44,376 bases of DNA from a virus (taxonomy: Duplodnaviria; Heunggongvirae; Uroviricota; Caudoviricetes): positions 1 through 44,376 of the IMG/VR virus record IMGVR_UViG_2541047881_000004, one strand, 5' to 3'. Position 1 is the stretch's first letter; each line of letters opens with the position of its first letter. Below are positions 10,301 to 13,984 of this stretch, piece after piece. The notes beneath the pieces are model-generated. The model was given only the letters and a program-made list of their open reading frames with translations, was not told where the DNA came from and did not search any database. The position numbers were made by a program, and so were the translations under genes.

Positions 10301-10972
10301 TCAGCGACCAATCACCACAACCTGACCACCATCCCCTTCGTCTGCCGTGCTGATCTCCTGAGAAACCACCCGCGACCCCACACGCATTTCACCGTACAGA
10401 ACAGGCAAAACATTGCCCTGGGCAACCATGTTATCCAGTGAGGAGAAATAGGTGTTCTGCTTACCGTTATCCGTTGTCTGTGTGCGGGGAGTTCTGGCTT
10501 TCGGTGCCAGCATCTGAGCCACACCGCCGAGCACCATACTGGCACCGAGAGAAAACAGAATGCCGGTCATACCACCGGCCCCAATGGCTGTCCCCCATGC
10601 TGCAAGGGTGGCTCCGGCGGTAAAGAATGATCCGGCAATGGCGGCTGCCCCCAGGACAATCTGGAATACGCCACCTGACTTGGCCCCGGCGACTCTGGGA
10701 ACGATATGAATCACAGCGCCGTCAGGCAGAGCCTCATGTAACTGCGCCGTTAATCCGGACGTGCTGACATCCTGCCCGGCAATACGTACCTGATACCAGC
10801 CGTCGCTCAGTTTCTGACGAAACGAAGGGAGCTGTGTGGCCAGCGCCCGGATGGCTTCAGCCCCCGTTTTCACACGAAGGTCGATGCGGCGGCCAAATCG
10901 TTGTAAATCCCCGTAAAGGCAGATGCGTGCCATGCCCGGTGACGCCAGAGGGAGTGTGTGCGTCGCTGCCAT
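10301..10972 (-). CDS. I: Tail assembly protein I
   Basis: 223 aa, MAATHTLPLASPGMARICLYGDLQRFGRR..., essentially lambda I; overlaps the 3' end of K by about 100 nt as in lambda. Confidence 0.95.
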   Translation of the reverse strand: MAATHTLPLASPGMARICLYGDLQRFGRRIDLRVKTGAEAIRALATQLPSFRQKLSDGWYQVRIAGQDVSTSGLTAQLHEALPDGAVIHIVPRVAGAKSGGVFQIVLGAAAIAGSFFTAGATLAAWGTAIGAGGMTGILFSLGASMVLGGVAQMLAPKARTPRTQTTDNGKQNTYFSSLDNMVAQGNVLPVLYGEMRVGSRVVSQEISTADEGDGGQVVVIGR

Positions 10973-11607
10973 TTGTCGGTATACCTCTCTCGTTTGCTCA
11001 GTTGTTCAGGAATATGGTGCAGCAGCTCGCCGTCACCACAGTAAATGGCGGCATGATTCGGCACAGATGAACCAAAACAGCACAGCAGCACATCGCCCGG
11101 CTGCGCCGCTGACAGCGGCACCTGATACAGCCCTGTGGCCTCCAGATTATCCAGATAGAGATTCTGACCGTTACGCCACCAGTCATCCTCACGATGAAAA
11201 TCCGGCATCTCAATCCCCGCCAGATGGTAAGCATCCCGGAACAGCGTGTAACAGTCCGTCACCCCGTGCTCAAAGAGCCGCCCGGTGAGATGCGGCACAC
11301 AGCGGAACTTATGAATCGCCCCCCGGCAGACCAGCCACCACGGCAAATCACTCTGCACCTGCAGTCGCCGGTCGGCCTCACTCAGCCAGGGCAGACCACC
11401 GGGGTGGCTGTGGACCAGCGCCACAACCTCACCCTGCATTTCTGCCTGCAGCCAGTCTTCCGGCGACATACGGAAATACGCCTCCGGCTCACCGGAGATA
11501 TTCACGCAGGGGAAATATCTTTCCCCCTCCGGCGCTCTCACCACGAAGCCGCACGACTCCGCTGGCGCACATCGCCGGGCGTGCGCCAATATATTGCTAT
11601 AGAGCAT
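10870..11607 (-). CDS. K: Tail assembly protein K (MPN/JAMM plus NlpC/P60-like)
   Basis: Lambda K-like (…VCGFVV…HSHPGG…); start set at ATG 11607 with an AGGAG RBS 5 nt upstream; the ORF is open to 11646 and lambda K is annotated shorter, so the start is uncertain. Confidence 0.85.
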   Translation of the reverse strand: MLYSNILAHARRCAPAESCGFVVRAPEGERYFPCVNISGEPEAYFRMSPEDWLQAEMQGEVVALVHSHPGGLPWLSEADRRLQVQSDLPWWLVCRGAIHKFRCVPHLTGRLFEHGVTDCYTLFRDAYHLAGIEMPDFHREDDWWRNGQNLYLDNLEATGLYQVPLSAAQPGDVLLCCFGSSVPNHAAIYCGDGELLHHIPEQLSKRERYTDKWQRRTHSLWRHRAWHASAFTGIYNDLAAASTFV

Positions 11608-11618
11608 GAGAACTCCTG

Positions 11619-11642
11619 ATAAAAAACCCAGCCGAAGCTGGG
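11619..11642 (-). terminator. Intrinsic terminator between ant and K
   Basis: Minus-strand RNA CCCAGC-UUCG-GCUGGG followed by UUUUUUAU. Confidence 0.6.
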
Positions 11643-11661
11643 TCATTTCGTTGGCAATCTG

Positions 11662-12597
11662 TTAGTAGTGATGCAGTGAAGGAGGTAATTCTTTGTTCTT
11701 AAGCCTTACCCATGCGGAAAGATTCGTTGGTCCGTCTGGCTCATTAATATCAACATCTCGTGTGTGATTGATTAAAACGTCTCTCGCCATTCCAATAACA
11801 TACGAGAACTCATGGCCGTAGTCGTAGCACCTGCCAAAATAGTTTGATTGAATTTGCTTTAGCGCCGGATACAGTTCGCGGAATAATGCCTGTGAGCGGT
11901 TGGCATAATCCCATAACCATACAAGGCTGTTTGCTTCTTTTGCAGAAAGCTCGTTGGTTTTCTTCTCTTGTTTTCCGATGAATTCGCCTTCAAGTGGAAT
12001 ACGAGCAGCAAGTGACAGTGCTTCGGTAAACTGCTCCTCACTGATTTCTTTGTACGAACATCCAAAATGGGATTTCAGTGACGACCACATGGTGATCATC
12101 GCCTTCGCCTGTTTTTCTTTTGGCAGAGACTGACCGCGACTCATGACGAGTTGTTTAATAGCTTCCTGCTGTTCAGTGGTGATTTTACCCGGCAACGCCT
12201 TTTTAGCTTTGCGCGGGTTAACCACATGGCCTTTAGTCCAGTAGTCATGCAGCACAGTAAAGCATTCTTCCTGGTACTGAATCAGTTTATCGCGGATGTC
12301 AGCACGAACTTTCTCAGGGTTGATGCTGAACAGCCATCCATTTAACTTCTTCAAAGGAAGGCAGAGTAGCTTACGAAGCTTCCCATCAGCAGCAACCATA
12401 TTCATATGAATACAGTTGAACTTATCTAGTTGTTTCATAAGTTTTTGTTGCTGAGTACCCCAGCTCATTCCGAGGTTTTCAACGATTGGCTTCATCGCAA
12501 CATATGCAACTCCTGCAGCCATGGCGGTGATAATTTGCTGACCGTTGAAGGATACGTAAGAGGTGCTCACTGCTTCTAAAATTGCTATACTATTCAT
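11662..12597 (-). CDS. ant: Antirepressor (P22 Ant-like)
   Basis: 312 aa from ATG 12597 ([10 protein letters not shown]...); sits downstream of an arc-like gene as in the P22 immI operon; longest ORF extends to 12720 but those codons overlap arc (alternative start 12678). Confidence 0.7.
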
Positions 12598-12669
12598 ATC
12601 AGTTTTCTCGTAGTTAACTGGTAATTTAGAAGCCTCAATGGTTGCAGCCATTGAGGCTTCGCTGTTTTT
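12598..12669 (+). ncRNA. sar: Candidate sar-like antisense RNA covering the ant translation-initiation region
   Basis: Plus-strand extended -10 element TGCTATACT (12583-12591) inside the 5' end of ant; about 72 nt downstream a 13-bp perfect stem (12629-12641 / 12648-12660, GAAGCCTCAATGG...CCATTGAGGCTTC) followed by GCTGTTTTT; by analogy with P22 sar. Confidence 0.35.
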
Positions 12670-12841
12670 AGCGACCATTCGCCACCTCTTCCCTAACACC
12701 TTTTGCCAGCAAACGAACAATTGCAGAGTTCAGAGATATACAGTCCATTTCCGCCAGGCGGCGAAGGTCTTCATTCAGCCGTGATGGAAGGCGAAGGTTG
12801 AGTTTGATATTTTTGCGCTCAGTGAAAAGTGTATCTTGCAT
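12668..12841 (-). CDS. arc: Arc-like ribbon-helix-helix repressor
   Basis: 57-aa ORF below the track size cutoff, translated by hand: [57 protein letters not shown]; matches the Arc/Mnt pattern NLR.P...L....AE....S.NS.I; GGAG RBS 8 nt upstream. Confidence 0.65.
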
Positions 12842-12948
12842 TATCTAATCTCCTTTATGTGGTGCCAAAGTGACGCCATGAAGGCCATAATGCCACCATT
12901 GAAATCGTATGGCAATATGGCACCATGATTTTTTTTGAGAGATTTGCA
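12842..12948. promoter_or_regulatory. Divergent promoter/operator region between arc-ant and mnt
   Basis: On the minus strand TTGCCA-17 nt-CATTAT reads toward arc; repeated ATGGTG(C/G)CA motifs are operator candidates. Confidence 0.4.
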
Positions 12949-13269
12949 ATGGCCGAAAAACAAGTAAAAGACTACGACAAGTTCAACCTCCGTTTTCCTG
13001 ACGGAATGCGAGATGCTATAGCTGAACGAGCCAAACGAAACGGGCGCTCTATGAACTCAGAGATTGTTCAGATACTGGAAGATGCCTTGAATGCAGAAAA
13101 TACACTCGGGGAAATAGCAGATAAAATTAACAGCGTCTCGGTTCCGCTAAATGTTGATGCGCTAGTTCAACTTCAAGCCCAGGTTATCGCCATGCAAAAA
13201 GAAATACAGGAAAAGTTCAGAGAGCAGAACGAAAAGTTGAGAGAACTGCTAAACAAAAAACCCACCTGA
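12949..13269 (+). CDS. mnt: Mnt-like ribbon-helix-helix repressor
   Basis: 106 aa from ATG 12949; ...FNLRFPDGMRDAIAERAKRNGRSMNSEIVQILEDAL closely matches P22 Mnt (...NGRSMNSELLQIVQDAL); transcribed divergently from arc-ant. Confidence 0.75.
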   Translation: MAEKQVKDYDKFNLRFPDGMRDAIAERAKRNGRSMNSEIVQILEDALNAENTLGEIADKINSVSVPLNVDALVQLQAQVIAMQKEIQEKFREQNEKLRELLNKKPT

Positions 13270-13276
13270 CGGTGGG
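13251..13276 (-). terminator. Intrinsic terminator downstream of L, overlapping the mnt stop codon
   Basis: Minus-strand RNA CCCACC-GUCA-GGUGGG followed by UUUUUUGUUU. Confidence 0.55.
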
Positions 13277-13285
13277 CATAATCCA

Positions 13286-13984
13286 TTACTGCGAAAGTTT
13301 GTTAATGGAAAGGAAGCCGCCAAAGTTGCCGACGTTATTGCGAAACTTACAGCCGCTCAGGCATTTGCTGCATTTATCCTTCGTGATATCGGACGTCGGC
13401 TGGTCATATTCATCCGCGACAGCCGGACCGTGATAACCGCACTCATCACCGCGATAGGTCCAGGTGCAGGTGTTGGCCAGCATGATACGTCCCGGAAAAA
13501 CAGCGCCGTCCGTTTCCGTCGGCGTGGACAGTACAAAGGAGGCACTGACCGCGCTCAGTTCGCTGCACTGCTCGATGCGCCAGCGACTGATCACCTCCTG
13601 CTCCGGATCGGCGTCGCTGTTTCCGTTGACGAAGTTCACCGCATCCAGAAAACGGGCGTAAACCTTACGCCTGACCACCGTTCCGCCGACCAGACTCTGC
13701 AGATCTTCCGCCATCCCGGTGACCATACCGTACAGGTTAGAAACCGTCAGCGTGGGGCGCGTACTGGTGCCTTTGCCATTCAGTTCAAAACCGCTCCCCT
13801 GAATGGGATACGCCTGATACTGTCGCCCCTGCCAGGTGACCGGCTCACCTTTTTCGTTCTGCTCATTACAGAAAAAATAACGTTCTCCACCGACCTCTGT
13901 CAGATCGATCTCCCAGAGCACCACGCTGGCCGACTGCTCCGCACGGGTGCATTCATTCAGTGTTTCCTGCCGGATATCCTGCAT
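13286..13984 (-). CDS. L: Tail tip protein L
   Basis: 232 aa, MQDIRQETLNECTRAEQSAS..., lambda L-like. Confidence 0.95.
   Translation of the reverse strand: MQDIRQETLNECTRAEQSASVVLWEIDLTEVGGERYFFCNEQNEKGEPVTWQGRQYQAYPIQGSGFELNGKGTSTRPTLTVSNLYGMVTGMAEDLQSLVGGTVVRRKVYARFLDAVNFVNGNSDADPEQEVISRWRIEQCSELSAVSASFVLSTPTETDGAVFPGRIMLANTCTWTYRGDECGYHGPAVADEYDQPTSDITKDKCSKCLSGCKFRNNVGNFGGFLSINKLSQ

Follow-up and report, generated by a model that had tools for sequence, protein, structure and literature searches.

The plus-strand interval 12598-12669 of the viral DNA analysed here (44,376 nucleotides in all, referred to below as the window) very probably specifies a diverged homologue of phage P22 sar, i.e. 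a cis-encoded antisense RNA of ~70 nt, situated in an immI-type module of a lambda-like prophage of E. coli. P22 sar is a long-established case of antisense control, and the present locus is a diverged, unannotated member of that known family, whose mechanism is already known and whose occurrence here is unsurprising to the specialist. Four kinds of observation carry the identification: the sequence elements themselves, their homology to sar, the conservation of both structure and promoter among relatives, and a preference for the sar strand over the strand of the arc-ant mRNA.

Judged from their sequences, the Ant, Arc and Mnt-like genes of the window form a P22-type immI module, with the same order and orientation as in P22. 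The features of this module, and of the putative antisense RNA that lies within it, are as follows.

11625-11644, minus strand: terminator-like hairpin and T-run directly past the ant stop codon (terminator scan), closing the arc-ant unit.
11662-12597, minus strand: ant, antirepressor gene, 311 aa (Pfam P22_AR_N, E 2e-44; P22_AR_C, E 5e-29).
12563-12568, plus strand: candidate Psar -35 element, TGCTCA, a weak match.
12583-12591, plus strand: Psar extended -10 element, TGCTATACT, read from the sequence, with TG at -15/-14 and the hexamer TATACT.
12598-12611, minus strand: ant translation-initiation region, ACGAGAAAACUGAU before the AUG, covered wholly by the 5' part of the predicted sar.
12598-12669, plus strand: predicted sar-like antisense RNA, ~69-72 nt, with its 3' end within the T-run 12665-12669; the ends are placed according to the P22 annotation.
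12598-12622, plus strand: stem-loop I, obtained by folding, with a 7-bp stem AUCAGUU/AACUGGU that includes one U-G pair.
12629-12669, plus strand: stem-loop II, a predicted intrinsic terminator (terminator scan), with a stem of 13-14 bp at 12629-12660.
12668-12841, minus strand: arc-like ribbon-helix-helix repressor gene, 57 aa (Pfam Arc, 22.1 bits; cut-off 20.4).
12860-12928, no strand assigned: control region between arc and mnt, from a promoter scan and repeat search; the matches are at consensus level only, and the assignment is by analogy with P22.
12915-12887, minus strand: candidate Pant, TTGCCA-17-CATTAT with TG (promoter scan, consensus level).
12862-12891, plus strand: candidate Pmnt (promoter scan, consensus level).
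12949-13269, plus strand: mnt-like ribbon-helix-helix repressor gene, 106 aa, divergent from arc-ant (Pfam Arc domain, 73.3 bits).

The ant gene shares 81-93% nucleotide identity with ant of P22-like phages, the arc-like product is 37% identical to P22 Arc (related records annotate an Arc-family or Arc-like repressor), and the mnt-like product is 50% identical to the N-terminal domain of P22 Mnt. The control region between arc and mnt contains three copies of a ~19-nt repeat, together with the inverted repeats TGGTGCCA/TGGCACCA, as candidate operators; comparison of this region with the P22 operators revealed no sequence similarity. The module is located between the lambda-type tail genes L (13286-13984) and K (10870-11646), within a lambda-like head/tail cluster, whereas that of P22 lies next to the podovirus tailspike gene. 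A prophage of E. coli TUM1880 matches its arc/sar/mnt segment at 100% identity; in Stx-converting phages, and in prophages of O157:H7, O55:H7 and O111, identity over this segment is 95-99%. Identification of the window with the TUM1880 prophage throughout was rejected, as identity of ~97% extends over 7744-31027 only and the tRNAs annotated there are absent. As a separate observation, the window joins a P22-like ant body to a sar/arc/mnt segment of the Stx-phage type, the joint being the conserved 18-mer that contains Psar and the ATG.

With ant taken to start at the P22-type ATG (12597-12595, minus strand), the -10 element of Psar covers ant codons 3-5. The initial annotation had proposed an extended -10 element opposite ant, within its 5' end, and TGCTATACT is indeed present at 12583-12591, in precisely these codons. 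A scan of both strands of the window identified a sole occurrence of the pattern TGnTAWAMT, 38 nt upstream of the 13-bp hairpin described below. On the strength of these sequence features, a candidate promoter that is directed against ant lies inside the first codons of that gene, and its -10 element is the same as that of P22 Psar; since the -35 element is poor, Psar is predicted to depend upon the extended -10.

The predicted RNA would begin at the base complementary to ant position -1, adjoining the ant ATG, and covers the entire 70-nt gap between arc and ant. The 72-nt segment 12598-12669 folds into two hairpins with an energy of -30.9 kcal/mol, compared with -13.3 +/- 2.8 kcal/mol in shuffles (z = -6.2). 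The loop of stem-loop I contains UUCUCG, complementary to the Shine-Dalgarno region of ant; in the folded mRNA a small hairpin holds the SD-like GAG of ant (12609-12607), which is weak, in its loop, and the ant initiation region aligns with the P22 segment GGAGAAAAA. The arms of stem II, GAAGCCTCAATGG (12629-12641) and CCATTGAGGCTTC (12648-12660), are perfect complements around a 6-nt loop, TTGCAG, to which folding adds a closing U-G pair so as to give 14 pairs and a 4-nt loop. Stem II is followed by the tail GCTGTTTTT (12661-12669), consisting of a 4-nt spacer (GCTG) and then, overlapping the TAA stop codon of arc (12670-12668), the run TTTTT at 12665-12669. A start of the U-run 4 nt past the stem departs from textbook terminator geometry; this spacer is common to P22 and most relatives.

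The perfect 13-bp inverted repeat at 12629-12660, with its tail, is thus present as initially annotated, and only its distance from the promoter needs to be amended: the repeat had been placed ~70 nt after the -10 element, but the hairpin starts 38 nt after it and reaches ~70 nt with its 3' end. The further statement that no U-run follows the hairpin on the arc-ant mRNA strand is also borne out, as the sequence encountered there is CTAAATTACC, without a T-run, and the terminator scan reports the hairpin on the plus strand only. Stem II is the only perfect hairpin of at least 13 bp (loop 3-10) in the 44-kb window, and 100 shuffles yielded none; its uniqueness, taken together with the location of the sole TGnTAWAMT 38 nt upstream, excludes chance as an explanation. 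The window's own stem II is fully Watson-Crick and hence foldable on both strands, so that the strand preference of this individual copy rests on the U-run, the promoter, the one G-U pair of stem I and the close variants of the allele.

Comparison with P22 was based upon GenBank AF527608, in which Psar, the sar RNA (70 nt), tsar, arc, ant and mnt are annotated. The initial annotation had likened the interval to P22 sar in its geometry, and every geometric feature annotated in AF527608 (promoter, +1, two hairpins, tail on the arc stop codon) is reproduced in the window. P22 carries the same TTGCTATACTATTCAT, in which 6 nt separate the extended -10 from the complement of the ant ATG, and RNA synthesis would therefore start at the equivalent base in both. 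The two loci share an RNA length of ~70 nt, two hairpins, an anti-Shine-Dalgarno sequence in loop I, a tail overlapping the arc stop codon, an identical Psar -10 element in the same ant codons and the same three surrounding protein genes. In contrast to this shared architecture, sequence identity is confined to 46 of the 76 positions aligned, and compensatory changes rebuild both stems: stem I is GUUGGU/ACUGAC in P22 and AUCAG(UU)/(AA)CUGGU in the window, whilst stem II is GAAGCCCUGACUG/CGGUUGGGGCUUC in P22 and GAAGCCUCAAUGG/CCAUUGAGGCUUC in the window. The spacer between the hairpins is also longer (6 nt in the window, 4 in P22), as is the U-run (5 nt in the window, 3 in P22). The P22 sar transcript and its repression of ant translation, also when acting in trans, are documented in reviews and in a paper on epsilon34 (PMC12197685, PMC2629481, PMC7968456), the immI region and 'ant moron', sar included, have been described in P22-like phages (PMC2629481), and the transcript was re-detected by small-RNA sequencing in 2026 (PMC13397905).

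A search of the whole window with Rfam at gathering threshold gave no match. In a permissive local search the sar model, RF00262, aligned over its full length (model positions 1-68 of 68) with 12597-12663 on the plus strand, with a score of 29.8 bits (E 5e-4), which is below the curated gathering threshold of 43 bits. This threshold is operational rather than biological. The same model scores 96 bits on P22 and 66.7, 46.9 and 35.4 bits on the variants L148, L073 and L082, respectively; a search at E <= 0.01 left L149 (the O157:H7 copy of the window allele), L052 and L074 unreported, and the 43-bit threshold misses L052, L074 and L082. A broader covariance model, R1, was constructed from 29 distinct sar sequences of the viral-contig set described below, with all window-type copies, and also L082, left out. 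Applied with filters off to the whole window, R1 identified a single strong site at 12598-12668 on the plus strand, matched at full length with 57.9 bits (E 2.4e-9). The opposite strand at the same site scored 29.2 bits, because the hairpin is palindromic, and the rest of the window scored at most 14.

IS10 RNA-OUT and the copy-number ctRNAs of plasmids (e.g. ctRNA_pGA1), cis-antisense RNAs that occlude ribosome-binding sites, are likewise short, highly structured and equipped with a terminator hairpin; they cover or control a translation-initiation region and begin pairing at their loops. Their resemblance to the RNA predicted here is one of analogy only, there being no transposase or replication gene at the window locus. 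A match to ctRNA_pGA1 (RF00236; 28.2 bits on the plus strand, 22.2 on the minus strand, cut-off 45) was rejected, the neighbouring genes being phage tail and immI genes; the match falls below threshold and arises because of a generic shape of hairpin plus U-run.

Conservation was assessed in two sets of loci. The first, from viral contigs, was gathered by promoter pattern and contains 92 copies that represent 35 distinct 72-nt sequences of at least 8 variant types. Because the promoter pattern was used to gather this set, promoter conservation within it is circular, and the second set was gathered by protein similarity instead. Across the 35 distinct copies of the first set, pairing on the sar strand is intact in 99.7% of the 630 pair cells, and 7 pairs have changed at both positions (28 cells); none of 500 shuffles reached any of the five measures used, and sliding the register reduced pairing to 27-50%. 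Stem I is 99.4% paired, with exchanges of G-C to A-U and of G-U to A-U or G-C, and 6 of the 13 pairs of stem II are changed on both sides. When the mirrored structure is imposed on the mRNA strand of the same copies, only 81.4% of pairs are retained, because many G-U pairs become A.C mismatches, and the difference between 99.7% and 81.4% indicates that selection acts on the sar strand. The window-type variants L088 and L122 provide an instance: an A-to-G change in each gives a U-G pair in stem II that on the mRNA strand corresponds to an A.C mismatch. Covariation and the strand comparison thus both speak for an RNA structure that is conserved on the sar strand.

The second set comprises ant homologues from one genome per species, 23 loci in total, and R1 identified an element opposite ant, abutting its ATG, in 14 of these (13 scoring at least 36 bits, and one 29.4). 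The genera concerned include Klebsiella, Citrobacter, Providencia, Yersinia, Morganella, Hafnia, Lonsdalea, Brenneria, Mixta and Erwinia. In a MAFFT alignment of these 14 copies, pairing in stem II is kept at 95.9%, and 9 of its 13 pairs have both partners changed, a result that none of 500 shuffles reached. MAFFT placed stem I out of register in these distant sequences, and this stem was assessed by folding single sequences: 13 of the 14 form a 5'-terminal stem with a pyrimidine-rich (anti-Shine-Dalgarno) loop, together with a terminator hairpin, the one exception being L125, whose excised sequence was cut 4 nt short and for that reason shows no stem I. The promoter pattern TGnTAnAnT is present in all 14 of the sar-bearing ant loci in this protein-based set, 6-7 nt ahead of the 5' end given by the model, and the N-termini of the Ant proteins encoded at promoter-keeping loci vary (MNSIAI, MTSLAI, MASISI, MTSVST, MNSVTA).

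The reading given above places the start of ant at 12597, but the 70-nt 'intergenic' region could instead be coding. In that case Ant would start at the in-frame ATG at 12678, comprise 338 aa (27 additional residues) and be coupled to arc, with the hairpin inside its reading frame. We regard this as unlikely, although several features are compatible with it: the ATG at 12678 overlaps the arc stop codon and is preceded by the Shine-Dalgarno sequence GAGGTGG in the 3' end of arc, the frame upstream of the P22-type ATG is open for at least 27 codons, PGAP annotates the long form of ant in NC_049944, and in-frame upstream ATGs close to the arc stop codon also occur in the variants L052, L073 and L082. 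Differences within the putative extension, however, display no excess at third codon positions (9/6/10, 5/7/7 and 13/10/13 by codon position, compared with 24/13/41 in genuine ant coding sequence), and the three substitutions found among window-type copies would all be non-synonymous if the region were coding, whilst two of them keep the RNA pairing via G-U. Moreover the P22-type loci, L072, L074 and L115 have no upstream start, the SD-like motif before the P22-type ATG is kept in every variant, and RefSeq uses the short start (12597) in the identical locus of NZ_CP135706. The sequence evidence thus favours 12597 as the ant start and makes the long form unlikely; even if made, long Ant would leave sar in place.

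The locus might, alternatively, hold a relic of sar that is homologous and structurally intact but non-functional here, with Psar inactive or the ant module carried as silent cargo in the tail operon. The weak -35 element and the weak Shine-Dalgarno sequence of ant are consistent with such a relic, as is a combined Ribo-seq and RNA-seq study of EDL933 in which the one Rfam 'sar', of 67 nt, received zero reads in LB (PMC5331693). Judged by this length and by its Rfam score, the sar listed in EDL933 is probably of the L148 type, and the lack of reads, in a lysogen, suggests that sar expression is low while Pant is silent. Against a relic, ant, arc and mnt have intact reading frames, the -10 element, the U-run and the two stems are likewise intact, the U-run is better than that of P22, and the window allele recurs with 95-100% conservation in 273 of 5426 complete E. 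coli genomes, chiefly those of O157:H7, O55:H7 and O111, its few variants keeping the pairing; we therefore consider a non-functional relic distinctly improbable. It is more improbable still that the hairpin serves the arc-ant mRNA (as an intercistronic stabiliser, RNase III site or means of translational coupling), with the -10 a by-product of Ant codons and no antisense RNA made: stem II of the window, being fully Watson-Crick, does also fold on the mRNA strand, R1 still scores 29 bits on the minus strand and the -10 lies within coding sequence, but pairing across the family drops from 99.7% on the plus strand to 81.4% on the mRNA strand, the T-run occurs on the plus strand only, all 14 of 14 loci retain TGnTAnAnT despite differences in the residues encoded, and the homologous P22 transcript is annotated (AF527608), appears in reviews and has been re-detected by small-RNA sequencing (PMC13397905).

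Returning to the favoured reading of a functional sar homologue, we infer its transcription, exact ends, pairing and repression of translation by analogy with P22, and these can be assembled into the following putative mechanism. The extended -10 promoter in ant codons 3-5 would initiate plus-strand transcription at the base adjoining the ant ATG, generating an RNA whose 5' hairpin offers an anti-Shine-Dalgarno sequence in its loop and which would end at the strong hairpin and U-run over the arc stop codon. With its perfect complementarity to the 70-nt region between arc and ant, sar would pair with the arc-ant mRNA, probably beginning by loop-loop contact at the Shine-Dalgarno hairpin, and this pairing would occlude the ant ribosome-binding site such that antirepressor is not translated. 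In this way sar may add a post-transcriptional layer to repression of Pant by Arc and Mnt. Since Arc and Mnt act only upon initiation at Pant, and arc-ant is in the sense orientation within the late tail operon, we suggest that sar would be the sole layer of control available for late transcripts that read through.

RefSeq annotates no RNA at loci that carry the window allele, and in annotation its region is sometimes absorbed into an over-long ant reading frame; our search of the literature on sar and immI in the tail clusters of Stx or lambdoid phages found no description of this allele, and a survey that noted Ant in 126 of 279 Stx phages leaves sar unmentioned (PMC8136144). In O157:H7, two prophages bear different sar alleles, one of the window type (L149) and the other L148 (strain F8092B). 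The latter resembles the former in its position in the tail cluster between L and K, in its ant, arc and mnt neighbours and in its architecture, but has a P22-like stem II, shares ~60% identity with the window allele and reaches 66.7 bits in the Rfam search. Its longest complementarity to the window target is 6 nt, and the two alleles are consequently predicted not to cross-react; overall, cross-complementarity between them extends to at most 7 nt. A tentative extension, to which we attach rather less than even likelihood, is that sar exists as mutually orthogonal alleles that co-vary with arc and mnt as specificity groups, such that co-resident lambdoid prophages of STEC each gate their own antirepressor, with the 18-mer at Psar and the ant start acting as a recombination joint that reassorts ant with sar/arc/mnt cassettes.

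These findings identify an annotation gap, in that the window allele is invisible to Rfam at the curated threshold, and indicate that the Rfam seed greatly understates the breadth of the sar family, since 14 of the 23 ant loci sampled, from more than 10 genera of Enterobacterales, have an element abutting ant. Antirepressors are able to induce prophages without the SOS response. The predicted RNA brake on Ant in STEC prophages may bear upon prophage cross-talk and possibly upon induction of toxin phages and, if the Ant proteins act on the repressors of Stx prophages, allele-specific control by sar would bear on cross-induction between prophages and on toxin release.

Sequence comparison places a mosaic joint where the -10 element of Psar, the promoter of the antisense RNA sar, meets the start of the antirepressor gene ant, at positions 12580-12606 of the window, at 2429-2460 of the comparison locus L003, and in L149, a locus from E. 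coli O157:H7 F8092B; the 18-mer AATTGCTAWACTANTCAT lying here is the sole stretch common to all alleles compared. The ant body of the window is P22-like (81-93% nucleotide identity to P22-like phages), and the sar/arc/mnt segment joined to it is of the type found in Stx phages. In most Stx and O157 prophages, this segment is followed by another ant allele (MTSLAIADRT...).

Strain F8092B itself contains two immI modules (mnt, arc, sar and ant) in separate prophages, in both cases flanked by tail genes L and K, and their sar alleles differ:
2484-2550 of L148, sar allele recognised by Rfam (66.7 bits)
about 2519-2590 of L149, window-type sar allele, unrecognised by Rfam
Since identity between these two alleles is about 60%, and their cross-complementarity does not exceed 7 nt, they are predicted to be orthogonal to each other.

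One further in-frame start codon is available for ant:
12678 (region 12598-12678), minus strand, in-frame upstream ATG of ant, preceded by a strong SD (GAGGTGG) within the 3' end of arc
Initiation at this codon would lengthen Ant by 27 residues, spanning the entire sar target. PGAP annotation differs on this point, giving the long Ant in NC_049944 and the short in NZ_CP135706, and in-frame ATGs upstream of ant are also present in comparison loci L052, L073 and L082. A search of the upstream extension for a codon-position signature of coding found none.

Between arc and mnt (12860-12928), a repeat search identified three copies of a ~19-nt motif (TGCCAAAGTGACGCCATGA-like) together with inverted repeats TGGTGCCA/TGGCACCA, which overlap candidate Pant and Pmnt. 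These are likely candidates for Arc and Mnt operators, whose specificity would differ from that of P22. On the late-operon strand, a terminator scan showed the module to be bracketed by terminator-like hairpins, each with a T-run:
11625-11644, minus strand, after ant, ahead of the probable actual start of K
13260-13277, minus strand, after L and overlapping the 3' end of mnt
The listed K open reading frame probably starts too early, and transcripts of the late tail genes have to continue past both terminator-like hairpins.

Two hairpins lie elsewhere in the window:
1995-2021, perfect hairpin (11 bp, 5-nt loop) close to the prophage's tail-fibre/invertase end, the only long perfect hairpin besides sar stem II
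37709-37777, plus strand, hairpin then T-run, the third-best match (14 bits, non-significant) to R1, a covariance model built from sar copies excluding window-type sequences; probably an ordinary intrinsic terminator of the early region

Weaker R1 matches occur upstream of Pasteurellaceae ant homologues, at two loci from Mannheimia and Pasteurella:
936-1002 of L141, sar-like match (29 bits)
953-1017 of L142, sar-like match (23 bits)
Comparison of the -10 region of these two loci revealed no obvious conservation. The sar family may reach past the Enterobacterales.
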